From Minisyncoccota bacterium (lineage in GTDB: Bacteria; Patescibacteriota; Minisyncoccia; Minisyncoccales; JAQTVQ01): a stretch of DNA of 57,281 bases. Positions 18,719-37,779 of the stretch are shown piece by piece (position 1 is the first letter of the stretch; the number at the start of each line of letters is the position of its first letter). The stretch spans positions 1-57,281 of the forward strand of contig JBAZHV010000001.1 of the NCBI GenBank assembly GCA_041652155.1, written 5' to 3'. Under the pieces are notes generated by a model. It was given only the letters and a program-made list of their open reading frames with translations, was not told where the DNA came from and did not search any database. Made by a program: the position numbers and the translations under genes.

Positions 18719-19423
18719 ATGCTTGATTCGAAATTCTGGGCAAAATATTTTAAGGTTTATGATGTTCTAAATTCGTTGATCACTTACCAAGAGCTGCTAG
18801 ACGCTATTTGCGACGAACTCGATATTAAAAAAGGTGAAAAAATATTAGAAGCTGGCTGCGGAACTGGAAATTTAGCGTTGAAAATGAAAGAACGAGGAGC
18901 CGACGTGACAGGAATAGACAATTGCCAAGAAGCTTTAGGCATCTATCTTGAAAAAGATCCGAGCGCCAAGGTATTTTTAGCCGATTTGAAAGAGAAATTA
19001 CCTTTTCCAGATAACTATTTTAATAAAATAGCGTCGAACAATACTTTATACGCTCTCTCTGGAGAAAAACAGTTAAAAACGATGGAAGAATTATATAGGA
19101 TATTAAAAAAAGAAGGACAGATATTGATTTCAAATCCGTTAAAAAATAGTCGGCCGGTCTATATCTATTTTGATGAGATAGCAAAGGGCTGTAAAAGGAA
19201 TGGGTTCATTCGAACCATGATAAGAAGTCTAAAAATGATAAAGCCAACCGTTGAATTAATCTATTATAACAGCCTGATTGTTAAAGAGGCTAAAAATGGT
19301 TATTTTAATTTTTTCGAAATAGGCGACCAAAAAAAAATGTTAGAACGCGCCAACTTTAGAAATATATCCAATAATAAAATTGTTTACTCTGGCCAGGCTG
19401 TTCTAAACAAAGCAGCGAAATAG
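18719..19423 (+). CDS. class I SAM-dependent methyltransferase
   Basis: Motif I ILEAGCGTGNLALKM, acidic loop VTGIDN and motif post-II LKKEGQILISNP. SD GGAGGAG upstream. Confidence 0.8.
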   Translation: MLDSKFWAKYFKVYDVLNSLITYQELLDAICDELDIKKGEKILEAGCGTGNLALKMKERGADVTGIDNCQEALGIYLEKDPSAKVFLADLKEKLPFPDNYFNKIASNNTLYALSGEKQLKTMEELYRILKKEGQILISNPLKNSRPVYIYFDEIAKGCKRNGFIRTMIRSLKMIKPTVELIYYNSLIVKEAKNGYFNFFEIGDQKKMLERANFRNISNNKIVYSGQAVLNKAAK

Positions 19424-19426
19424 AAT

Positions 19427-20074
19427 ATGATAGGAAAAATAAATTTACCATTTTTTATAAAATCATTCTTAATAAATCTCTTGTTATTAAGAGAACATAT
19501 AGAAATAAAAATTGCCAAAACTGAAGAAGAAAAGAATAAAGCGATATCTTTAGTTTTTGATATTTATAAAAAAGAGGGGTACATTGATTTAAATTTTTTT
19601 AACGATTTTAATGATTTCAAAGATGAATTTGACGATAATTCTGTATATTTTTTAGCATTTTTAAAAAATAATTTGATTGGAGCTCTTAGGATTATTCTCC
19701 CGTCTAAAATCGGATTTCCCTCTGAAAAATTTTTTAATTATGTAAGCTTACCGGTTGATAAAAAAGACGTAGCTGAAATATCTAGACTAGCGATATTGAA
19801 TAATCATAGAAAAAATATAATAACATTGGGATTGTTTAAAAAATGCCTTGATTATAGTAAGAATAAAGGGTTAAAATATTGGTGCATGGTTGTGCCAGAA
19901 AAACTAAAATCTCATTTTGAAAAATTTAAGATAAAATTTTATAAATTTAATCTAGACGAATCAAAAAATCAGAATCAGGAAGCCATAAGACCTCATAGAT
20001 TCTATTTCGAGAAAAACCAACCAAAACTTTATTTGATAGAGTTAAGAGAAATCGAAACATATTTTATCCTATGA
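19427..20074 (+). CDS. GNAT-fold N-acyltransferase resembling N-acyl amino acid synthases (FeeM/OlsB/LuxI-like)
   Basis: IKIAKTEEEKNKAISLVFDIYKKEGYI, GALRIILPS...FPSEKFF, AEISRLAILNNHR, and LKYWCMVVPEKLKSHFEKFKI. Layout as in Acetyltransf_5 or exosortase-associated acyltransferases. Starts 3 nt after the methyltransferase stop and has an ATGA overlap with the kinase. Confidence 0.5.
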   Translation: MIGKINLPFFIKSFLINLLLLREHIEIKIAKTEEEKNKAISLVFDIYKKEGYIDLNFFNDFNDFKDEFDDNSVYFLAFLKNNLIGALRIILPSKIGFPSEKFFNYVSLPVDKKDVAEISRLAILNNHRKNIITLGLFKKCLDYSKNKGLKYWCMVVPEKLKSHFEKFKIKFYKFNLDESKNQNQEAIRPHRFYFEKNQPKLYLIELREIETYFIL

Positions 20075-21636
20075 ATTCAATTTTTTCTTTCGATAGCTTA
20101 CTTGTTCCTATTCTAATCTTTAATTTAGGGCTGGGACTTTTTGTATATCTAACCAATAAAAGTGATCTCAAAAATAATTTATTTTTGGGATTGGCGACAG
20201 GGACGAGCCTTTGGATTGGAGGGTTATTACTTATAGGGTTGACTTCTTATGAAATCGGGGGGCGTCTTTCTTTTTCTGGGGCCTTAATTTCCGCATGGTT
20301 TTTTCTTCTTTTTACTTTCCAATTTCCAAAACCACTACACTCTGGAAAAAATAATATATTCAAAAAATTAGGATGGTTTGTGACCGTAGCTATCGTTATC
20401 CTTTCTCTACTCACACCGCTCGTTGTCAAAAAAGAATTTTCTGAAGAAACAACTTTTGGGGTTAGTGGAGAATTTGGGGTTTTATATCCGATTTGGAGCA
20501 TCTATTTTATTTTTTTAATGGGCTACGGATTGGTCAACTTGTTTAAGGAGCTGATAACTCCTAGGGAAAACAAGTTAGAAAAAAAACAGCTAAAATATTT
20601 TTTTTTAGGGGCTTCGTCGACAATTTTGATAACGGCAACGACTAATCTAATTCTTCCTTTATTTGGACTTTATCAATATTCAAAATTAGGACCGCTTGGA
20701 ACTATTTTTTTGATTTCATTTACTGGTCTTGCCATCCTTCGTTATCACCTTTTTGAAATAAAAGTTATTTTGACGGAGATTTTGGTCGCATTGATGGGCA
20801 TTACCCTGATGATTCTTATCTTCTTTATGCCCAGCGTACCTCTTAGATTATTAACCGGATCAATTTTGTTCCTGTTTTTGATCTTTGGATTTTTATTGAT
20901 CAAAGCTACCCACGAAGAAGTCAAAAGGAAGGAGGAGGCTGAAAGGCTTCTTAAGGCTAAGTCGGAATTTCTTTCCATTGCTTCACACCAATTGAGAACC
21001 CCTTTAACCGCTATAGCCGGATATATCTCAATGTTAAAAGAAGGGGACTATGGGCGGATACCGGAGGAAGGTGATAAAGCCATCAACAAGGTCTATGATT
21101 CTTCCCAAAGAATGATCAAACTGGTCAATGACTTTTTGAACGTTTCCAGGGTGGAAACGGGAAGAGTAGTCTTAAATCTATCGCGCGTATCCCTGGACGA
21201 AATTATCCTGCAAATTATTGCCGAAACCGAATTGAAAGTAAAACAAAAAGGGCTCTTCATAAAATGGAACAAGCCTTCGCTGGAACCGATAGTGAACGTT
21301 GATCCTGAAAAAATAAAAGAAGCAATAAGCAATATAGTGGACAATGCTATCCACTATACCGACCAAGGAGGGATAACTATTTCCGCTAAAATAGATCCCG
21401 TAAAAACAACTCTTATGATCTCCGACACGGGCGCTGGTATGGACCGTATTGAAATAGCTAAAATATTTGAAAGCTTTTCCCGCGGTTCCGCAGGGAACAA
21501 ACTCTACACTCAAGGGTCGGGCCTTGGACTGTACATAGCCAAAAAATTCGTCGAACTGCACGGCGGAAGAATATGGGTCGAATCGCAAGGGAAAGGCACA
21601 GGATCGGCTTTCTATATAGAATTGTCAAACAGATAA
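20071..21636 (+). CDS. sensor histidine kinase with an N-terminal 7TM sensing domain
   Basis: About 7 TM helices ending in AILRYHLFEIKVILTE. H-box SIASHQLRTPL, N-box DNAIHYT, G1 DTGAGM and G2 GSGLGLYIAK. Confidence 0.9.
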   Translation: MNSIFSFDSLLVPILIFNLGLGLFVYLTNKSDLKNNLFLGLATGTSLWIGGLLLIGLTSYEIGGRLSFSGALISAWFFLLFTFQFPKPLHSGKNNIFKKLGWFVTVAIVILSLLTPLVVKKEFSEETTFGVSGEFGVLYPIWSIYFIFLMGYGLVNLFKELITPRENKLEKKQLKYFFLGASSTILITATTNLILPLFGLYQYSKLGPLGTIFLISFTGLAILRYHLFEIKVILTEILVALMGITLMILIFFMPSVPLRLLTGSILFLFLIFGFLLIKATHEEVKRKEEAERLLKAKSEFLSIASHQLRTPLTAIAGYISMLKEGDYGRIPEEGDKAINKVYDSSQRMIKLVNDFLNVSRVETGRVVLNLSRVSLDEIILQIIAETELKVKQKGLFIKWNKPSLEPIVNVDPEKIKEAISNIVDNAIHYTDQGGITISAKIDPVKTTLMISDTGAGMDRIEIAKIFESFSRGSAGNKLYTQGSGLGLYIAKKFVELHGGRIWVESQGKGTGSAFYIELSNR

Positions 21637-21655: not shown

Positions 21656-22681
21656 ATGGATTTTTTAACAATTTCTACCTCCATCTTCATTGTCTTCACT
21701 CTATTCATAGGATTTTCCGTCTATTTTAGCAGGAAAAACAAACTTTCACTGACTTTTCTTTTTTTCTGCTTATCAACAGTTATTTGGATGATTGGCGTTC
21801 TGTTAGCTAACACTAGCCACGCGTCTTATATCTCCGGTAATTTCGGCTTTAGATTGTCGTTCTTTGGGATTTCATTATTATCCACGATTTTCATATATTT
21901 TGTTCAGATTTTTCCGGAAGAAAAACATCTTCCCAGAACAATAAATATATTGTTTATAGGATTATTAGTTATTATAGGATCGCTATCTATTTCAACTAAT
22001 TTGATAGCAGATGAGATAACTTATCTGAACGGCGCGATAGTTGATAAAAGATATGGTCCTTTATATCCTTTTTTTTCGCTTCTTCTGCTCTCTTCGCTCG
22101 CTTTGTCTATATTTTTTTCAGCGTTTAAATATAAATCCTTGGAAAATGCGATAAAAAAACAACAAGCTAAATACTTTTTGACTGGAATTTTTTTATCATT
22201 CATGTTCACCATATCTACCAATTTAATATCTCCATTATTTAAATTGGGATCATATAAAATCCCTCAATATGGACCATTTGGCTTCATATTTTTTATAGTT
22301 TTTTCTGCTTTTGCGATTCTCAAATACCGCCTTTTTGACATCAAAGTCATTATGACTGAAATATTGGTGGTGATCATGGGAATGGTTTTACTGTTTTTCC
22401 CGTTTTTGATGCCTACAAATACTCATCGAGTGTTGGCCGTTATAGTATTTTTGGCTTTTTGTCTGATCGGCTATCTATTGGTAAGAGCGAATTTAAAAGA
22501 AGTAAAAAATAGCGAACTATTGGAAAACAAAGTGAAAGAAAGGACCGCTGAACTTTCTAAAGCCTACGAAGAACTTAAAATCAGGCAAGAAGAGATCGAG
22601 AGATGGTACAGTCTTACCATCGGGCGCGAGCTGCGCATGGCCGAATTGAAACAAAAAATAAAGGAAATAGAGAAGAAATAG
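21656..22681 (+). CDS. kinase-less 7TM sensor paralog ending in a conserved coiled coil
   Basis: Same 7TM core (AILKYRLFDIKVIMTE) as the kinase. Ends after KERTAELSKAYEELKIRQEEIERWYSLTIGRELRMAELKQKIKEIEKK with no HATPase domain. Confidence 0.75.
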   Translation: MDFLTISTSIFIVFTLFIGFSVYFSRKNKLSLTFLFFCLSTVIWMIGVLLANTSHASYISGNFGFRLSFFGISLLSTIFIYFVQIFPEEKHLPRTINILFIGLLVIIGSLSISTNLIADEITYLNGAIVDKRYGPLYPFFSLLLLSSLALSIFFSAFKYKSLENAIKKQQAKYFLTGIFLSFMFTISTNLISPLFKLGSYKIPQYGPFGFIFFIVFSAFAILKYRLFDIKVIMTEILVVIMGMVLLFFPFLMPTNTHRVLAVIVFLAFCLIGYLLVRANLKEVKNSELLENKVKERTAELSKAYEELKIRQEEIERWYSLTIGRELRMAELKQKIKEIEKK

Positions 22682-22756
22682 CGCGCTTATCGACCGGATA
22701 TCGTTCGCGCCGAAAAATTTATGACAGCGGATAATACGCTTTTTTGATCTTTCAAA

Positions 22757-22785
22757 TTGTAAATCCGGCTGGAACATTATATAAT
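22757..22785 (+). promoter_or_regulatory. sigma-70-like promoter for lysRS
   Basis: TTGTAA, 17-nt spacer, TATAAT. Confidence 0.55.
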
Positions 22786-22824
22786 TTACTTAGCTTACGA
22801 TTAAACATCTAATAACAAAAAGAT

Positions 22825-24438
22825 ATGCAAAAATCTGAAACTGAATCGCAAAATCAGCATTGGAGCAGAGTGATAGCCGAAAAAGTACTGAAAAATTTTC
22901 CCGATAAAGAAATCTATACCTGCGCCGCGGGCATCAGCCCTTCGGGGATAGTCCATTTCGGCAATTTCCGCGATGTAATGACTTCTTTCGCTGTTTGCGA
23001 ACAGCTCAAGAAGGCCGGTAAAAAAAGCAGGCTGATATTTTCTTGGGACGATTTCGACCGTTTTAGGAAAGTGCCGCTAGGCATTGATCCGTCTTTTTCA
23101 AAGTATATCGGATTGCCTCTGACCGCTGTCCCTGATCCAAAAGGGGAGTACGAATCTTATGCCCAAAGATTCGAAAAAGAATTTGAACAATCGATGAAAG
23201 ATGCGGGCATCGAGCTCGAATACCGCTATCAAACAAGAGAATACAAATCGGGATGTTACGATAAGTTGATTATTCATGCCCTGCGGCACCGCTTGGAAAT
23301 AGCGGATATTTTGCTTTCTTTTATGTCCGAAAAAGGAAAAGAAGAAAAGGGGATAGATCCGCAAGAATTCAGAGAGAATTACTATCCGATATCGCTTTAT
23401 TCAAACTTCAGCGGAAAGGATAAGGTTAAGATCATAGGCTACGACGGCGAGAACAAGATAAAATATCAATGCTTGGAAACGGACAAAACGGAAGAGATTG
23501 ATATTACAAAAGACCATATCGTTAAGCTGGCCTGGAAGACAGACTGGCCTATGCGCTGGAGCGTGGAGCAGGTCGTTTTCGAGCCGGGGGGAGAAGACCA
23601 TGCTTCTCCGGGCGGCAGTTATGACGTTTCAAGCGCTATTTCCAAAAAAATATTCTCAAATGAGCCGCCGGTTTTTGCCGGTTATCAATTCGTAGGATTA
23701 AGAGGCCTTGATGGAAAAATGTCCGGCTCCAAAGGCAATGCGGTTTCTCCGGCCCAGCTTTTGGAAATATACGAGCCGTCGTTGTTGAGATGGCTTTACC
23801 TAAGCAAAAGCCCGGGCAGTGTTTTTAATTTGGCTTTCGACAGCGAAATCTACCGCCAATACAGCGAATTGGACGCCGAAGCGCAGGGTTGCAGAGGAGG
23901 AAGCCTTGATAATGTCAGAAAGGAGACTTTTGAATTGAGCACGAACGGAGGGGAATTTTATAATGATCCGATCCCTTTCCGCCAAGCAGTGGCGTTGGGA
24001 CAGATCACGCAGTGGAATATCCAAAAAATGCAAAAATTATTGGAAGAGCTTAAACTGAATTACGATGAAAATTCGGTAATATCACGCTTCGCGAAAGCTC
24101 GCAGATGGCTGGAGGCATATAATCCCGAACAAATGATAGCCTTGAGAAGCGAAATTAACGAAGAATATCTAAAGCAAATGCCTCCCGAAACTGTTGGCCA
24201 TATCCGTTCGCTGAAAAAAGAATTGGAAACAGAAATAACTTCGATCGAAAAGCTGGAAGAAATAGTCTACGGTATTCCTAAAAATCTTTCACTTGGCCCA
24301 AAAGAAAATTCAGCTCTGCAGAAATCTTTCTTTAAAGATGTTTACAATATGCTTATCGGCAAAGACCAAGGCCCCCGTTTGGCAACTTTTTTATGGGCAA
24401 GCGACAAAAAAACAATATTAAAACTTTTGGATGTTTAG
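22825..24438 (+). CDS. lysK: lysyl-tRNA synthetase, class I
   Basis: GISPSGIVHFGNFRDV (class I LysRS HIGH region) and KMSGSKGN. Confidence 0.9.
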   Translation: MQKSETESQNQHWSRVIAEKVLKNFPDKEIYTCAAGISPSGIVHFGNFRDVMTSFAVCEQLKKAGKKSRLIFSWDDFDRFRKVPLGIDPSFSKYIGLPLTAVPDPKGEYESYAQRFEKEFEQSMKDAGIELEYRYQTREYKSGCYDKLIIHALRHRLEIADILLSFMSEKGKEEKGIDPQEFRENYYPISLYSNFSGKDKVKIIGYDGENKIKYQCLETDKTEEIDITKDHIVKLAWKTDWPMRWSVEQVVFEPGGEDHASPGGSYDVSSAISKKIFSNEPPVFAGYQFVGLRGLDGKMSGSKGNAVSPAQLLEIYEPSLLRWLYLSKSPGSVFNLAFDSEIYRQYSELDAEAQGCRGGSLDNVRKETFELSTNGGEFYNDPIPFRQAVALGQITQWNIQKMQKLLEELKLNYDENSVISRFAKARRWLEAYNPEQMIALRSEINEEYLKQMPPETVGHIRSLKKELETEITSIEKLEEIVYGIPKNLSLGPKENSALQKSFFKDVYNMLIGKDQGPRLATFLWASDKKTILKLLDV

Positions 24439-24489
24439 CATAATAAAAGCTGAATAAAAAGAAGAACCAGAAAAAAAGTTAAAACAATT

Positions 24490-25509
24490 ATGTCATTTTT
24501 TGCCTTCTCCGGCTTATTCAATTTTATCGTAAGTTTTTTCCTTGGAGCTTTCATTGGCGCGAGGACTAAAAACAGGGAAACTCTGATCTTCAGCCTTTGC
24601 GCTTTTTCGGTGGCTTTTTGGAGCTTCGGATATTATATGTGGCAAGAACAGCAATCTTCCGGTACGGAAGAACTGGCTTTGTCGTGGTGCAGATTTTTGA
24701 TGGCTGGAGCGATTTTCATACCGATCACTTATTTCCATTACATAGTAGCTTTTGTAAATTCGATAAAGAGGCATAAGGCGTATATCTTAACTTTTTATCT
24801 TATCGGCTTGGTTTTTTTATATTTTGATATTTTTACGAATTATTTCATATCCGGAATGGAGCAGCAGGCGATGTTTAGATTTTGGCCGATGGCCGGACCG
24901 TTGTTCTTGCCGTTTCTTATCACTTGGTTCGGATCTATATGCTATGGAGGGTATTTGGCTCTTGGCTATTACAGAAAAACAGATTCCAAAGAAAAAAAGG
25001 AGCAAATCAAGTTTTTAATATTGGGCACGATCATCAGCTATGCCGGAGGAGCGACAAATTATTTTTTGTGGTACGGCATCCCGATATTGCCATACGGCAA
25101 TATTTTAGTGTTCGTTTACGTCGCCATGATAGCTTTTGCCATCCTTAGATACGGCTTGTTCGATGCCAAGATGATTTTGACCGAATTTTTGGTGGGAGTT
25201 ATGGGCTTTGCCCTGATAATCCTCCCGATCGTGATCCCTGAAACGAAATTCAAGATCGCGACCGCTCTCATGTTCGCCTTTTTTTGCTTTATCGGATATA
25301 TGCTGATAAAAACCACTTCCAGAGAGATAAAAGCCAAAGAGCATCTTGAAGAAAGAGTTGCGGAGAGGACTCAAGAATTGCAAACGGCCTATGAAGATAT
25401 AAAAAAACAGAAAGAAGAGCTGGAGAAATGGTATAATCTGACCATCGGCAGGGAATTAAAAATGGCGGAGTTGAAGAAGAAAATAGGGGAGCTGGAGGAG
25501 AAAAAATAA
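24490..25509 (+). CDS. kinase-less 7TM sensor paralog ending in a conserved coiled coil
   Basis: 7TM core AILRYGLFDAKMILTE. C-terminus AERTQELQTAYEDIKKQKEELEKWYNLTIGRELKMAELKKKIGELEEKK. Confidence 0.75.
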   Translation: MSFFAFSGLFNFIVSFFLGAFIGARTKNRETLIFSLCAFSVAFWSFGYYMWQEQQSSGTEELALSWCRFLMAGAIFIPITYFHYIVAFVNSIKRHKAYILTFYLIGLVFLYFDIFTNYFISGMEQQAMFRFWPMAGPLFLPFLITWFGSICYGGYLALGYYRKTDSKEKKEQIKFLILGTIISYAGGATNYFLWYGIPILPYGNILVFVYVAMIAFAILRYGLFDAKMILTEFLVGVMGFALIILPIVIPETKFKIATALMFAFFCFIGYMLIKTTSREIKAKEHLEERVAERTQELQTAYEDIKKQKEELEKWYNLTIGRELKMAELKKKIGELEEKK

Positions 25510-25608: not shown

Positions 25609-25974
25609 ATGTCCAAAATACTTATCATCGAAGACGAAAAAATCTTATCGGAGATGTATCAGGATAAATTTGAGAAAGAAGGTTTTGAAATCGTTGTGGC
25701 TATGGATACCAAGGAGGGTATGGAGCTTCTCAAGAGCTGGAAGCCGGACCTGGTCCTTTTGGATATCCTTTTGCCCAACGAAAACGGGATCGAATTTTTA
25801 AAAAGAAAAAATTTGGATTCCGAAATATCTTCTTTGCCGGTCATAGTTTTTTCAAACTTTGACGATCCTGATACTAAAGAGGAAACTCTTTCTTTGGGCG
25901 TGAAAGAATATTTGATAAAATCGAACCACGACCCGAAAGAAATAGTCGCCGTATTAAGAAAACACACTAGATAG
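25609..25974 (+). CDS. single-domain response regulator receiver (CheY-like)
   Basis: IIEDE acidic pocket, phospho-acceptor context DLVLLDILLP, and VFSN...K in LIKS. No output domain. Confidence 0.9.
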   Translation: MSKILIIEDEKILSEMYQDKFEKEGFEIVVAMDTKEGMELLKSWKPDLVLLDILLPNENGIEFLKRKNLDSEISSLPVIVFSNFDDPDTKEETLSLGVKEYLIKSNHDPKEIVAVLRKHTR

Positions 25975-28390: not shown

Positions 28391-29494
28391 ATGAACACCG
28401 CTAATTTCGACGATCCCGTTTTTGGAGTCATCAGAATGCTGTTGTTGGCCGCATCGTCCTCCATATTGGCGATGATCCTGGCTCCGTTTCTGATAAAATT
28501 TTTGAATAAAATAAACTTCTGCAAAAAGAACGCCAGAACGAAAACCATTGACGGAAAGGACGCGGAATTCGTGAATTCGATCAATAAAGATAATGAGGTG
28601 TCCGTACCGCGGGGAGGAGGGGTTCTGATCTGGGGCACCGTCCTTATAGTAACGGCTTTTTTCTATCTGTTGTCTTTTGTCGGAGACCCCTGGTGGTTCA
28701 AAGAATTTAATTTTTTCTCAAGGAACCAAACCTGGCTGCCTTTGTTCACTTTGGTCGCCGCTTCCATCCTCGGACTCGTCGACGACGCTCTGACAGTTTA
28801 CGGAAAAGGCAAATATATCGGAGGGGGATTAAGCTTCTGGCGGAGACTGGCGGTGGTTTCCATTATCGGATTGGTGGGCGGATGGTGGTTCTATAATAAT
28901 CTTGGACACGCGACGATACATTTCCCTCTACTCTTCAATTTTCCGGAGGGAGCGAATATCTCGATCGGAATATTCTTTATTCCCTTGTTCGTCTTCGTAA
29001 TGCTGGCGAGCTGGGCGGGAGGAGTGATCGACGGCATAGACGGATTGTCGGGCGGAGTGTTCGCTTCGATCTTCGGGGCTTTTACGATCATTTCTTTCGC
29101 GCAAGGCAGTTATGATCTGGCTGCTTTCTGTGCCATCATCTGCGGAACCTTATTCGCTTTCTTATGGTTCAATATTCCTCCAGCCAAATTCTATATGGGA
29201 GAAACCGGAAGCCTTGGGCTCACTTCAACAATGGCAGTAATAGCATTTTTGACCGATTCCGTAACGGTTCTTCCGATCATAGCGGGATTGCTGGTGATAG
29301 AGGTAGGATCCATAATTTTACAGCTTCTTTCAAAAAAAATACGCCACAAAAAAATATGGATAGCCACTCCGATCCATCACCACTTCCAAGCTAAAGGATG
29401 GCACTCATGCCAAGTGACAATGAGATTTTGGATCATTGGCATTGTGCTTGCGATACTCGGAACAGTTCTCAGGCTGATGAGCATTTTAAAGTAA
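28391..29494 (+). CDS. mraY: phospho-N-acetylmuramoyl-pentapeptide transferase
   Basis: Multi-TM protein with VPRGGGV, GLVDDAL and IDGIDGLSGG motifs. Confidence 0.9.
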   Translation: MNTANFDDPVFGVIRMLLLAASSSILAMILAPFLIKFLNKINFCKKNARTKTIDGKDAEFVNSINKDNEVSVPRGGGVLIWGTVLIVTAFFYLLSFVGDPWWFKEFNFFSRNQTWLPLFTLVAASILGLVDDALTVYGKGKYIGGGLSFWRRLAVVSIIGLVGGWWFYNNLGHATIHFPLLFNFPEGANISIGIFFIPLFVFVMLASWAGGVIDGIDGLSGGVFASIFGAFTIISFAQGSYDLAAFCAIICGTLFAFLWFNIPPAKFYMGETGSLGLTSTMAVIAFLTDSVTVLPIIAGLLVIEVGSIILQLLSKKIRHKKIWIATPIHHHFQAKGWHSCQVTMRFWIIGIVLAILGTVLRLMSILK

Positions 29495-29559
29495 TATTTT
29501 CTTTCTCGGACAGGCGATCTAATCAAGATAAAACCGTGAACGCGATAAGCCTATTCCTA

Positions 29560-30972
29560 ATGTCTACTTTTCTCACGCTAAGAAAAAAACATCCTAAATT
29601 TATCTACAAAAAATATGACTGGACGATCTCAGATCAAGGATTGGAGATCTCTTTTGATTTTTTACTGGAACCGGATATCATCTTCCGGCCGAACATTCTG
29701 ATAGAAAAAGTTTCGCGGGAGCAGACAGAAAAGATAGGGGATGAGTCTTTGAACAATTTGATCTTTAATCTCGGTTTGATAGAGATGGCGAGCTATTGGA
29801 AGGCCGCTTGCTCGCCGGAAATAGTTATCGAAGCCGGGACGCTTTCGCTTCGGCAAAGAAAATGGTGGGAATGGCTGATCCTGAACGGCTTGGGCCAATT
29901 TTTTTATGAAAATAAAATAGACTTCACAAAGCCGGGGCTGTTTAAAATAACTAGCCCGAAAAATTCGGAAGGCGACGCGATAAAAAACGCAGGGACCTTT
30001 CCCAACCAAGACGACAAGACAATGCTGCCGATAGGCGGAGGGAAAGATTCGGCCGTAACCCTGGAGATTTTCAAAAGATCGGGCAAAAAGATGGTTTGCT
30101 TTGCCTTGAATCCCAGCAAAGACAGCCGGGCGGTGATGGCCGCGGCGGGATGCGATAATTTCATTGCCGTCAAACGCACGATCGACAAAAAACTGCTTAA
30201 GCTTAACAGACAGGGATATTTGAACGGGCACACCCCTTTTTCGGCTTACTTGGCGTTCTTGACCACGCTGACCGCCGCTTTATTCGATTGCCGGTACATT
30301 GCCGTTTCCAACGAAAGAAGTTCCAATGAAGCGACCCTGGACTATTTGGGTAAAAAAATAAATCACCAGTGGTCAAAAACTTTTTCTTTTGAGGAAAGAT
30401 TCCAGACTTACAGCAAAAAATATTTAAACAAAGGAATTCTTTATTTCAGTTTCCTCCGGCCGTTCTACGAATTGCAGATAGCCAAAATATTCAGCGGCTT
30501 CAAAAAATATTTCAATTCTTTTTTAAGCTGCAACGAAGCCTATAAAATTTACTCCGGCCAAAAGACTCCCGCCGGCCAATGGTGCTGTAATTGTTCCAAG
30601 TGCTTGTTCGCCTTCATTATTCTTTATCCTTTCCTGGGTAAAGAAAAAATGACCGGCATCTTTGGCCAGGATCTTTTTGCAAATGCCGATCTTCTAGAAA
30701 CAGTAAAAGAACTAACGGGGGAAAAACCGTCAAAGCCGCTGGAATGCGTAGGGGAGAGAAAAGAAAGCCTCGCAGCCTTTTATTTAAGCCTGATCAAGGC
30801 TAAAGAAGGATCAGAGAAAAAAATGCCGGTCCTGTTGGAATATTTTGAACGAAAGATAATGCCGAAACACAAAAATTTAGCGCGGCAGGCAAAAAAAATA
30901 CTGTCATCATGGAATAAAAAAAATTCTTTGCCCGAAGAATTCGAAAAAATACTTTTGCGAAAAAAAGCGTGA
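29560..30972 (+). CDS. PP-loop ATP-pyrophosphatase-like protein, candidate MurL-type UDP-MurNAc-L-Ala-L-Glu epimerase
   Basis: PP-loop-like LPIGGGKDSAVT, SNERSSNEAT and Cys cluster WCCNCSKC. Inserted between mraY and murD. Start placed at the ATG at 29560, after the mraY stop. Confidence 0.45.
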   Translation: MSTFLTLRKKHPKFIYKKYDWTISDQGLEISFDFLLEPDIIFRPNILIEKVSREQTEKIGDESLNNLIFNLGLIEMASYWKAACSPEIVIEAGTLSLRQRKWWEWLILNGLGQFFYENKIDFTKPGLFKITSPKNSEGDAIKNAGTFPNQDDKTMLPIGGGKDSAVTLEIFKRSGKKMVCFALNPSKDSRAVMAAAGCDNFIAVKRTIDKKLLKLNRQGYLNGHTPFSAYLAFLTTLTAALFDCRYIAVSNERSSNEATLDYLGKKINHQWSKTFSFEERFQTYSKKYLNKGILYFSFLRPFYELQIAKIFSGFKKYFNSFLSCNEAYKIYSGQKTPAGQWCCNCSKCLFAFIILYPFLGKEKMTGIFGQDLFANADLLETVKELTGEKPSKPLECVGERKESLAAFYLSLIKAKEGSEKKMPVLLEYFERKIMPKHKNLARQAKKILSSWNKKNSLPEEFEKILLRKKA

Positions 30973-36325: not shown

Positions 36326-36378
36326 ATATTTTTATGCCCGTCCGATCAAGGCCGGAAATATCAATTTTTTCCAAAATT

Positions 36379-36666
36379 ATGACCCAAAAAATAATTATCT
36401 CTACTGCTATTTTTACCCTTGGATCGGCTTTATGTTTTGTGGCTTTTCCATCCGAGACCAGCGCGGCTCTCGCTGAAGTGCAACAGCAGATCGATGCTGT
36501 CGGGCAGACAGTAGACACCGTTGATCAACAAGCGCAAAGCGTAAAAGAAAAAGGATTGGTCCAAACTATCTGGGACAATACGATAGGCCAAACAATTTCG
36601 GCTATATGGCAGCAGATAACGGGGATATGGAGCCAAATAATGTCCATCTTCGGGGCGAAAGCTTAA
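36379..36666 (+). CDS. small secreted Trp-rich amphipathic protein
   Basis: Signal peptide MTQKIIISTAIFTLGSALCFVAFPSETSA, then a Q-rich helix and TIWDNTIGQTISAIWQQITGIWSQIMSIFG. Confidence 0.55.
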   Translation: MTQKIIISTAIFTLGSALCFVAFPSETSAALAEVQQQIDAVGQTVDTVDQQAQSVKEKGLVQTIWDNTIGQTISAIWQQITGIWSQIMSIFGAKA

Positions 36667-36688: not shown

Positions 36689-37075
36689 ATGTCTCCAAGA
36701 AAAAAATTCATCTTGATATTTATAAATATTCTTCTGATTTTTGCCTTTTTGATCGGATATAAACCTGCTCTGGCGGTGCAGACAGCGGGAGAGGGTGGAA
36801 TTGATCGGAGAACTGTAACAGCGGAGCAGGCATCGATTTTTGGAAGCGGAGGACTGGCAAGCAATGCCTGGCAATGGATAAAAGATGCTTGGAAGACAAC
36901 CTGCAAAATTCTAACAAGCATTTGGAACCAGATAATATCTCTTTTTAACTGGCAGAATATCAGCGCGGAAGGGCAAAGAGAGTTCGACAATTTTAAAAGA
37001 GATCTGCCCGGATTTCTTAAATGGATTTTTTCAGGAATAGGCGCGGCCGCTAAATGGGCTAGAGAACTATTCTAA
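36689..37075 (+). CDS. small secreted Trp-rich amphipathic protein (paralog-like)
   Basis: SD AAGGAG. Signal/anchor FILIFINILLIFAFLIGYKPALA. NAWQWIKDAWKTTCKILTSIWNQIISLFNW shares the IW-x-QI-x-S-(I/L)-F block with the preceding ORF. Confidence 0.55.
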   Translation: MSPRKKFILIFINILLIFAFLIGYKPALAVQTAGEGGIDRRTVTAEQASIFGSGGLASNAWQWIKDAWKTTCKILTSIWNQIISLFNWQNISAEGQREFDNFKRDLPGFLKWIFSGIGAAAKWARELF

Positions 37076-37125
37076 AAAAAGCCGCCATCATCGGTGAAAA
37101 AAATACTATGACGGATAGAACATAA

Positions 37126-37308
37126 CGGATAAGAGACAAAGAAAACCTTGAACAAAAGGTTCAGGAGCGTACAAAGGAGTTGCAAGGCGCCTACGATAAC
37201 ATAAAGAGCCAGAAAAACGAGCTGGAGCGCTGGTATAATCTGACCATTGGCAGAGAGTTAAAAATGGCCGAGCTTAAAGACAAGATCAAATATCTCGAGC
37301 AAAAATAA
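37126..37308 (+). pseudogene. orphan C-terminal fragment of a 7TM/coiled-coil sensor paralog
   Basis: In-frame translation LEQKVQERTKELQGAYDNIKSQKNELERWYNLTIGRELKMAELKDKIKYLEQK* matches the tails of 21656..22681 and 24490..25509. A stop codon lies immediately upstream and no start or TM region is present. Confidence 0.6.
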
Positions 37309-37343
37309 ATTTAATAAAAAATAATTTTGAATAAAGGGGATGG

Positions 37344-37376
37344 AATATTTATAAATAATTATTATTTATAAATATT
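37344..37376. repeat. perfect 33-nt AT palindrome
   Basis: AATATTTATAAATAAT T ATTATTTATAAATATT. Each arm contains the self-complementary 12-mer TATTTATAAATA. Confidence 0.8.
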
Positions 37377-37779
37377 TTAAATATATTTCTGCAGAAGAGA
37401 ACCTGCGAATCACAGGAGAACAAGGCATAGAGAAGGGCTTGACGCAGACGTTAGTCTTGCGATATCATAGTCTTAGTTAGTGAGTATAATGTCCCTAACA
37501 CTCGCTAAAGCCTAGAGAAAACCCAGTAAACGCCTGTAGCTGTTCCATATATGTTTGAAAAGGGCCAAAAACCCCTCTCTCGGCGGCCGAACACTTCCCC
37601 GGCCATATTATACAAATTTTTACAATTAAATTATTTTTATTTTTCTCCGCACTATTTTCTTTTTTCTTGTATAAATTATAAAATCATATTCGAAAGAGGT
37701 TTTCCCTTCTATGAAACGCTAATGAAACTCGCTTGACTCCGCGGCCTCTAATCTAACCAATTTACTTCAAAATCATCAA

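Follow-up and report, generated by a model that had tools for sequence, protein, structure and literature searches.

Kinase-less 7TM sensors of a Minisyncoccota bacterium end in a conserved tail that may pair with a motif of separately encoded output proteins

Two 7TM sensors and their C-terminal tail

The window, i.e. the whole stretch of 57,281 nucleotides analysed here (Minisyncoccota bacterium, contig JBAZHV010000001.1, forward strand), contains two genes for seven-transmembrane (7TM) sensors that lack a kinase core and end in a near-identical tail; the nature of this tail and its probable partner are the subject of this work. Paralog 1 (21656..22681, 341 amino acids (aa)) and paralog 2 (24490..25509, 339 aa), both on the + strand and starting with ATG, match the HisKA_7TM family (PF16927; aa 11-229 in paralog 1) with 47.0 and 46.7 bits, respectively, above the Pfam gathering cut-off of 28.6 bits. 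Paralog 1 is separated by 19 nt from a 7TM histidine kinase located upstream on the same strand (20071..21636, 521 aa), in which Pfam recognises HisKA_7TM, HisKA and HATPase_c. This kinase gene forms a tight pack with those of a methyltransferase and a FeeM-like N-acyl synthase GNAT (window 18719-21636), the GNAT stop overlapping the kinase start (20071-20074), and paralog 1 may lie in one transcript with these three genes. A class I lysyl-tRNA synthetase gene (LysRS, + strand, start 22825) stands between the two paralogs, and a single-domain receiver (REC; 25609..25974, + strand), which is a candidate end-point of the pathway, begins 99 nt 3' of paralog 2. The tail alone is found a third time at 37126..37308 (+ strand). 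The whole assembly (876 kb, 98% complete) encodes five histidine kinases and four receivers.

Both paralogs stop about 55 aa past the last membrane helix. The tail module occupies positions 22589..22678 in paralog 1 (EEIERWYSLTIGRELRMAELKQKIKEIEKK, followed directly by the stop codon; 64 bits to the tail profile A2) and 25414..25506 in paralog 2 (EELEKWYNLTIGRELKMAELKKKIGELEEKK; 62.6 bits to the same profile), and in these two copies it reads ELE[KR][WF]YxLT[IV]GREL[RK]MAELK..I.ELE, with 9-10 residues between the motif and the C-terminus of both paralogs. When one tail was used as query in a six-frame search of the genome, the other two were recovered with E-values of 6.5e-17 and 2.6e-16. An alignment with the kinase 20071..21636 showed that the tail is common to both paralogs and absent from the kinase, the membrane parts being 35% (paralog 1) and 24% (paralog 2) identical to that of the kinase. 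No HisKA or HATPase_c domain was found in either paralog with Pfam or NCBIfam (no Pfam HisKA at E <= 0.1), and the last 60 residues hold no phospho-acceptor histidine, the tail reading G-R-E-L-R/K. Downstream, the LysRS gene from 22825 and the REC gene from 25609 leave no space for a kinase domain. An earlier note on this DNA had described the two 7TM open reading frames (ORFs), their core strings, the tail consensus and the lack of both the histidine and the ATPase domain, and ORF, Pfam, NCBIfam and alignment results bear it out on each of these points.

In an AlphaFold2 (AF2) model of paralog 1 (22-sequence alignment, mean predicted local distance difference test (pLDDT) score 81.6), residues 255-340 form a single unbroken helix running from the last membrane helix through an ERT motif into the tail, with neither a hairpin nor a kink at T-I-G. 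The full-length alignment A4 (22 homologues) gives R296, T297, G323, R324, E325, M328, E330, L331 and K332 as invariant, the invariant E-R-T lying about 25 residues ahead of the tail. An ERT motif in a long helix leaving the sensor is a feature of the signalling helix (S-helix); the placement between two domains of one chain is not found in the paralogs, whose helix is terminal, as it is in nearly all other carriers, and a helix of this type is internal only in the fused forms described below. The paralogs show no frameshifts, variable ends or downstream kinase relics that would mark them as pseudogenes; the stop position is kept and the downstream genes are intact. The sensor domain of the kinase 20071..21636 is 43% identical (E = 1e-68) to P0004, a tail-bearing protein of a relative, and its 7TM domain is closer to P0004 than to the paralogs of its own genome. 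The same sensor type thus occurs with either output, and the tail and the kinase core serve as alternative endings on one type of sensor.

Conservation, carriers and remnants of the tail

A protein search returned about 30 homologues of 334-359 aa from Candidatus Paceibacterota, all of which have this tail at their end. The 62-residue tail, searched exhaustively against 1.84 billion representatives, gave 289 proteins at E <= 0.001. Among the 165 motif-bearing proteins pooled from both searches, the last motif was never farther than 60 aa from the C-terminus (165/165) and was within 30 aa of it in 159. These results agree with the note's proposal of a dedicated sensor family without enzymatic output. 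The wider consensus is ELE[KR][FW][YN]xLT[VI]GREL[RK]MxELKxxIxELE, with G, M, E and L conserved at 96%, 95%, 97% and 98%, respectively; at three further positions the search pattern itself had set R, E and K for this count, but these are invariant in alignment A4 as well. The third codon positions of the genome's own tail copies are only 30-60% identical, which indicates that selection acts on the protein and excludes gene conversion as the source of the identity of the tails. Truncation or assembly error is ruled out by the length and stop position, which are conserved across phyla. As judged from these sequence comparisons, the tail is an unannotated conserved module.

The database search proposed earlier was made, and the tail proved to be widespread in Candidate Phyla Radiation (CPR) bacteria, archaea and other phyla and to belong to no known family. 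When one genome of each species was scanned, the pattern GRE[LV][RK]MxELK was found at more than 598 places, 343 of which were confirmed; the matches span CPR phyla, DPANN, Methanoperedenaceae, Thermoplasmata, Bacteroidota, Desulfobacterota, Verrucomicrobiota, Nitrospirota, Planctomycetota, Proteobacteria and others. We fetched 80 loci from CPR, DPANN, Methanoperedens, Bacteroidota, Desulfobacterota, Verrucomicrobiota, Nitrospirota, Planctomycetota and Proteobacteria, and in every tail-bearing ORF the motif was 8-39 aa from the stop. The carriers are diverse: 7TM sensors, 7TM sensors with an extra domain of about 170 aa (P0034, P0035, C23:8639, C23:10196), a periplasmic-domain/HAMP protein (C8:26675), another multi-transmembrane (multi-TM) protein (C8:28667), PAS arrays (P0083, P0113, P0138, L041, L037, L049), a 1474-aa REC plus PAS array (P0076), REC alone (L057) and REC-GAF (L088).

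Sequence and profile comparisons of the tail motif with Pfam, NCBIfam and the Protein Data Bank (PDB) identified no family. The only weak matches of the tail and of its putative partner region were a 19-bit NCBIfam match to the linker of a REC-HD-GYP family and designed K-coil-type peptides in PDB; the tail itself resembles designed coiled-coil peptides in the canonical heptads of its C-terminal half. Full-text literature searches with the motif strings GRELRM and LNILED, their variants and descriptive terms gave nothing relevant, and the internal motif of P0157, used as a protein-search query, returned essentially the query alone. Tails from outside CPR and DPANN (L032, L036, L053, L077, L085) often continue with ...LL.xLG..P.Y... 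before the stop, and the linker of the fused protein P0182 also contains Y..P....YPP; these elements may represent a conserved connector turn.

The copy at 37126..37308 comprises 60 codons, with an in-frame TAA just upstream and no ATG. The earlier note had presented it as a decayed third copy: it is indeed a remnant, left by a clean deletion of about 821 bp rather than by gradual decay, and three was an undercount, since a six-frame search of the genome gave nine intact full-length tail proteins plus two tail-only remnants. The orthologue P0038 (333 aa) is intact at the syntenic place in a relative, with FtsW, MurG, GluRS and two small ORFs upstream and a Xer recombinase, UppS and L27 downstream. 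DNA homology covers window 37129-37623 and resumes upstream at 37052-37078, the loss on the 5' side corresponding to codons 1-274, that is, the 7TM domain. The Xer recombinase and the intergenic stretch are kept beside the intact gene in the relative. The remnant is 80% identical to P0038 at the aa level (compare with 82% for GluRS and 88% for Xer), its codons differ by 21 synonymous and 12 nonsynonymous changes, and the frame is undisrupted, which suits either a recent loss or a constraint that still acts. Translation from a TTG at 37180 would yield a product of 42 aa, the start context being poor. Tail-only remnants retain all invariant residues.

The second remnant (C10:34216-34329) has 37 codons, an in-frame stop upstream and no ATG, and is flanked by a YchF-like GTPase gene and by the end of the contig; two other genomes (G314 and G112) likewise have short frames with the tail alone. 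Downstream of the first remnant, window 37309-37623 is non-coding and 75% identical to the relative's intergenic region, and within it we found no Rfam family and no tRNA or tmRNA, the folding z-score being an unremarkable -1.2. The two small ORFs located between GluRS and the sensor gene (36334-36666 and 36689-37075) have N-terminal hydrophobic segments and keep their positions in the relative, with identities of only 54% and 31%, respectively, against 82-88% for their neighbours; they are fast-evolving small secreted or membrane proteins.

The LN unit, its gene order and its fusions with the tail

Contig C8 of the same genome carries a multi-TM tail protein gene (28667..29782) followed, after 5 nt, by that of a soluble PAS-HisKA-HATPase kinase (29787..30965), and two single-domain receivers come directly after this kinase. 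The N-terminus of the kinase reads ...LRQARSALLNILDDTEAARK..., and the motif in it (C8:29844-29906), which we call the LN unit, recurs by tail genes in unrelated phyla with the consensus xLExTQRA[LVI]LN[IM]LEDxxEEK, in which N and D are invariant. It is the only LN unit among the kinases of this genome, and it lies on a different contig from the window; the kinase 20071..21636 has none. No entry of Pfam, NCBIfam or PDB covers the LN unit. The ERTxEL signalling-helix pattern stands ahead of both tail and LN unit, and the net charges of the two are +2.3 (tail) and -1.9 (LN unit). An alignment of tail proteins mixed with kinases (A5) misaligned the tails and was discarded.

In kinases of CPR bacteria and archaea the LN unit is single and precedes a PAS or DHp domain. 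Bacteroidota, Proteobacteria and Planctomycetota have short kinases that lack a sensor and carry two to five tandem 21-residue repeats of the unit at the N-terminus. Kinases L037, L041, L042, L062, L074, L082 and L084 start with three to five tandem repeats of ENTQRAxLNILDDYSxEKxxL, and the NCBIfam model that such repeat-bearing kinases match best is that of the LvrA hybrid kinase, in its C-terminal part. The outputs that carry LN units are HisKA kinases, a HisKA_2/HWE kinase with five units (L082), and HD-GYP proteins of the types PAS-LN-HD-GYP (L052, L043) and REC-LN-HD-GYP (L088). These HD-GYP (HD_5) proteins (L052:3949-5079, L043:4112-5353, L088:2623-3711) are encoded directly after tail proteins, and the connector may therefore also feed cyclic di-GMP turnover.

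Gene order was counted in the 63 of the 80 loci with enough downstream sequence. A kinase was among the next three same-strand genes in 38 of the 63 and an LN-bearing gene in 29, and in 19 loci the LN unit was in the very next gene, at stop-to-start distances of -16 to +116 nt that were mostly overlaps. A relaxed LN pattern, which also catches variants such as ALVNIVED, was present in 31 of 63 kinase ORFs and in 7 ORFs directly 3' of tail genes, altogether 37 of the 80 loci; its background is 2 occurrences in the long open frames of this genome (335,075 residues). In the window's genome, an LN gene directly 3' of a tail gene is found for C8:28667-29782; paralogs 1 and 2 are followed by LysRS and REC.

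We then ran the tail and LN profiles on the same 301 Patescibacteria genomes, which are spread over many families. Tails occurred in 34 genomes and LN units in 33, with 29 genomes having both, 5 the tail only, 4 the LN unit only and 263 neither (odds ratio 381, Fisher p = 5e-31, uncorrected for phylogeny). In the four LN-only genomes, two matches were weak and one was at a contig start. As read off the coordinates, about 25 of the 29 genomes with both have a tail that is followed on its own strand, 0.2-2.5 kb further downstream, by the LN unit.

The ratio in this genome is nine tails plus two remnants to one LN kinase, the other 300 sampled genomes having at most six tails each. Two related Paceibacterota genomes (G313 and G314; 0.8-1.0 Mb) contain 23 tail genes and one LN kinase each, this single kinase gene adjoining one of the tail genes. 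In one of these two, six 7TM-tail genes stand in tandem within 6.3 kb (Paceibacterota SO_2017_LW1_35, L011, 970-7260). The region C8:26675-31849 encodes a HAMP sensor with a tail variant (LMVDRELRMIELK), a FAD-type oxidoreductase-like ORF, the multi-TM tail protein, the LN-unit PAS kinase (5 nt later) and the two single-domain receivers, and is probably the hub for all tail sensors of the genome.

Natural fusions bring the two motifs together in one chain. P0182 (487 aa), from a genome of the window's order (G101), consists of a TM anchor, a coiled coil, a degenerate tail (LTVERELRLAELKK), a 19-residue loop, AMLNILED, PAS, HisKA and HATPase. AF2 models it with helices at 2-100 and 120-152 joined by a loop, pLDDT being 39-71 over tail helix, linker and LN helix; its N-terminus as a protein-search query returned essentially the query alone. 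Among 201 genomes sampled from the phylum to which a Bacteroidota hit belongs, 17 further ones have the tail, and in 16 of these 17 it lies inside open frames of 849-1049 aa. One such fusion, inspected in full, reads PAS - DLERFNRxMVGRExRNIELK - linker - QRxALLNL[IV]EDANxARNEL - DHp - ATPase - REC - Hpt. In nine fetched hybrid kinases (about 850-1050 aa) the tail is ahead of the H-box in the same frame, and in eight of the nine a recognisable LN unit follows 55-76 residues past the tail, the H-box being 51 residues past the LN start. The LN profile found nothing in the 201-genome sample beyond the seed genome; the fused variant ALLNLIEDAN falls below its threshold, so that this outcome reflects the sensitivity of the profile rather than a true lack of LN units.

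The fused order is thus sensor, tail, linker of 19 to 76 aa, LN unit and kinase. Since the fusions contain both motifs, tail and LN unit make up a single element between them, either joined in cis or split at the linker. Tails are relaxed in the fusions (M changed to N or L, G to E), which would fit with a lowered demand on an interface once it is tethered. The earlier note had named a common linker always preceding further domains as a finding that would speak for truncation or assembly error: this applies in part only, the motif standing ahead of further domains in some homologues, namely the Chlorobia-type fused kinases and P0182. The split form, by contrast, is conserved in many phyla, which argues for gene fission and trans-association and not for error.

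Proposed docking, rival explanations and known systems

The tail is conserved and terminal, its inputs and the outputs with LN units are varied, and gene order, co-occurrence across genomes, natural fusions, many-to-one ratios, complementary charges and the sensor type that the window kinase shares with a tailed protein of a relative all point the same way. Taken together, these findings support the tail as the docking helix of a split sensor/output system, pairing with the LN unit, and we hold this to be the probable explanation, though well short of certain. The sole cytoplasmic part of the two sensors is a long helix ending in the ~30-residue tail, which would be one half of a two-helix connector, the LN unit ahead of the catalytic part of separately encoded outputs being the other. 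In most lineages the gene is divided within the tail-LN linker, leaving a sensor that ends in the tail and a kinase or HD-GYP enzyme that begins with or contains the LN unit. The basic coiled coil of the tail in a sensor dimer would pack on the acidic coiled coil of the LN unit in an output dimer, and this contact would relay the signal, completing in trans the helical path that is continuous in the fused proteins. In the genome studied here, nine sensors, including paralogs 1 and 2, would converge on the PAS kinase C8:29787-30965, which would phosphorylate single-domain receivers, namely the two adjoining ones and 25609..25974. Direct tail-LN binding, its geometry and the choice between activation and inhibition are what we infer from these comparisons. 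We consider it possible, although we would sooner doubt it than assert it, that tail and LN unit form a general prokaryotic plug-and-socket, by which any tailed input (7TM, PAS, GAF, HAMP, REC) is wired in trans to any LN output (HisKA/HWE kinases, HD-GYP).

Several points weigh against docking. Support for tail-LN binding is comparative throughout, and the association across genomes takes no account of shared descent. Paralogs 1 and 2 are not adjacent to the LN kinase, which is on another contig, and paralog 1 directly follows a conventional 7TM kinase without an LN unit. Five of the 34 tail-positive CPR genomes have no detectable LN unit, and a Methanoperedens genome with seven tails gave zero LN profile matches; the profile overlooked variants such as ALVNIVED and ALLNLIED, which makes presence/absence calls noisy and negative calls elsewhere, as in Methanoperedens, weak evidence. 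LN repeats (1-5) vary without relation to how many tail genes a genome has, and the AF2 confidence for the tail and LN helices of P0182 is low, so that their packing cannot be read from the model.

The same fold, the 35% identity and the 19-nt distance that relate paralog 1 to the 7TM kinase, the canonical heptads in the C-terminal half of the tail and the plain continuous helix given by AF2 would also suit a tail that is a mere homodimerising zipper, the sensors acting through their membrane domains as partners or decoys of that kinase and the LN link being an operon by-product. This is unlikely, as PAS, REC, HAMP and GAF carriers have no membrane domain to pair with the 7TM kinase, a plain zipper needs no invariant G-R-E and E-L-K, and LN co-occurrence, specific gene order and fusions would be left unexplained; the idea of a decoy or partner of the adjacent kinase, put forward in the earlier note, also meets with the absence of a matching motif in that kinase, the likely partners being the LN-unit output proteins. 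Tail proteins could instead bind the LN kinase as inhibitors, through mixed coiled coils or by capping the LN unit, and compete to switch the kinase off. The evidence for docking applies here as well, the ERTxEL pattern before both motifs makes mixed pairing conceivable, and the tail-only remnants keep all invariant residues; the data do not discriminate the sign of regulation, but the tail of fused proteins simply belongs to the normal route of signal input, and we regard such inhibitors as quite unlikely.

A likeness between G-R-E-L-R-M-A in the tail and S-H-E-L-R-T-P in DHp domains, with ELExF upstream in both, is visible by eye. The earlier note had called the tail DHp-like and had named, among other roles, sensors acting as adaptors to the orphan receiver 25609..25974. 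As a degenerate His-less DHp helix 1 that docks receivers, the tail would make the sensors adaptors or sinks for this REC protein, and a REC gene does adjoin a tail gene here and in L014, L023 and L040 (in the order tail gene then REC in L014). The likeness, however, appears only when the alignment is shifted by one residue against the ELExF that lies upstream, a second helix for a DHp bundle is absent, and REC adjacency is much weaker than LN adjacency. When the tail profile A2 (68 tails) was compared by hhalign with 45 DHp domains taken from the same loci, the match was not significant (P = 0.13, 20 columns): helix 2 was aligned and the H-box was not, and Pfam, as mentioned above, gave no HisKA. 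The LN profile A3 gave P = 0.028 over 8 columns in the same comparison, which we judged not significant. The tail is therefore not classed as DHp-like, and adaptors to the receiver survive only as a rival that we consider improbable. Finally, the existence of fused forms and the remnants of this genome (37126..37308 and C10:34216-34329) could be taken to mean that the tail proteins have no function and are what is left of broken sensor kinases, or that they are assembly artefacts. This is hardly credible in view of the length and stop position conserved across phyla, the evident purifying selection, the 9-23 intact copies in ~0.9 Mb genomes and the intact unrelated genes immediately downstream.

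Sensor proteins without recognisable output are common in prokaryotes, and their signalling is described as an acknowledged gap (PMC5847659, Galperin et al. 2018). If docking through tail and LN unit is true, the partners of output-less sensors would be predictable from sequence alone, the expansion of the tail family to 1-3% of genes in some ~0.9 Mb CPR genomes would be explained, and two-component systems could be rewired in synthetic biology with a natural, portable connector. A general plug-and-socket, if true, would account for the many bacterial and archaeal PAS and REC-PAS proteins that are "output-less", and would let 9-23 membrane sensors of the ultra-small Paceibacterota converge on one kinase in the manner of a receptor array. 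The tail and the LN unit, two unmodelled motifs, could become family models for annotation, and docking is directly and cheaply testable with two small soluble fragments.

How does this arrangement compare with known systems? HisKA_7TM kinases (PF16927), such as that encoded by 20071..21636, have the same 7TM input as the paralogs; unlike them, the paralogs have no DHp domain, phospho-acceptor histidine or ATPase, and only one tailed helix. Anantharaman, Balaji and Aravind reportedly described the S-helix and its ERT motif in 2006. An S-helix links two domains in one chain, and the paralogs resemble it by the long helix that leaves the sensor with an invariant E-R-T, a pattern also found ahead of LN units in kinases; they differ from it in that their helix ends the protein and the GRELRMxELK block is outside the S-helix motif. 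Kinases controlled by separate sensors include H-NOX with its kinase, LuxP-LuxQ and YycH/I-WalK, where the interfaces are globular and system-specific. As in the tail system, input and transmitter are separate polypeptides there and are often encoded side by side, whereas one short portable helix pair appears here to serve many inputs and several outputs in both prokaryotic domains. In chemoreceptor arrays, many methyl-accepting chemotaxis proteins (MCPs) feed one CheA via a conserved tip, and the likeness lies in the many-to-one relation of membrane receptors with a conserved helical end to one kinase (9:1 and 23:1); the tail system has no MCP signalling domain, CheW or CheA, and its kinase, with PAS and HisKA domains, is of an ordinary type. 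Docking domains of modular synthases and designed E-coil/K-coil pairs join separate modules by short complementary C- and N-terminal helices. The basic tail and the acidic LN unit recall them, as do the K-coil-type peptides mentioned above as the sole PDB matches; the biological context differs, and the tail/LN pair is known here from sequence only.

Output-less archaeal REC-(PAS/GAF)n proteins must, according to Galperin et al. (2018; PMC5847659), act by protein-protein interaction, and the tail carriers P0076, L057 and L088 have exactly this architecture; the passages of that paper which treat such proteins name neither a terminal motif nor a partner, and the tail/LN pair would supply both. 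Altogether, separate sensors that control kinases are already known, and fusions with both helices belong to the ordinary hybrid kinases. Three points appear to be new, namely that two conserved helices without a family model are recognised as a matched pair, that genes are widely split exactly between tail and LN unit, and that CPR genomes show the many-to-one expansion.

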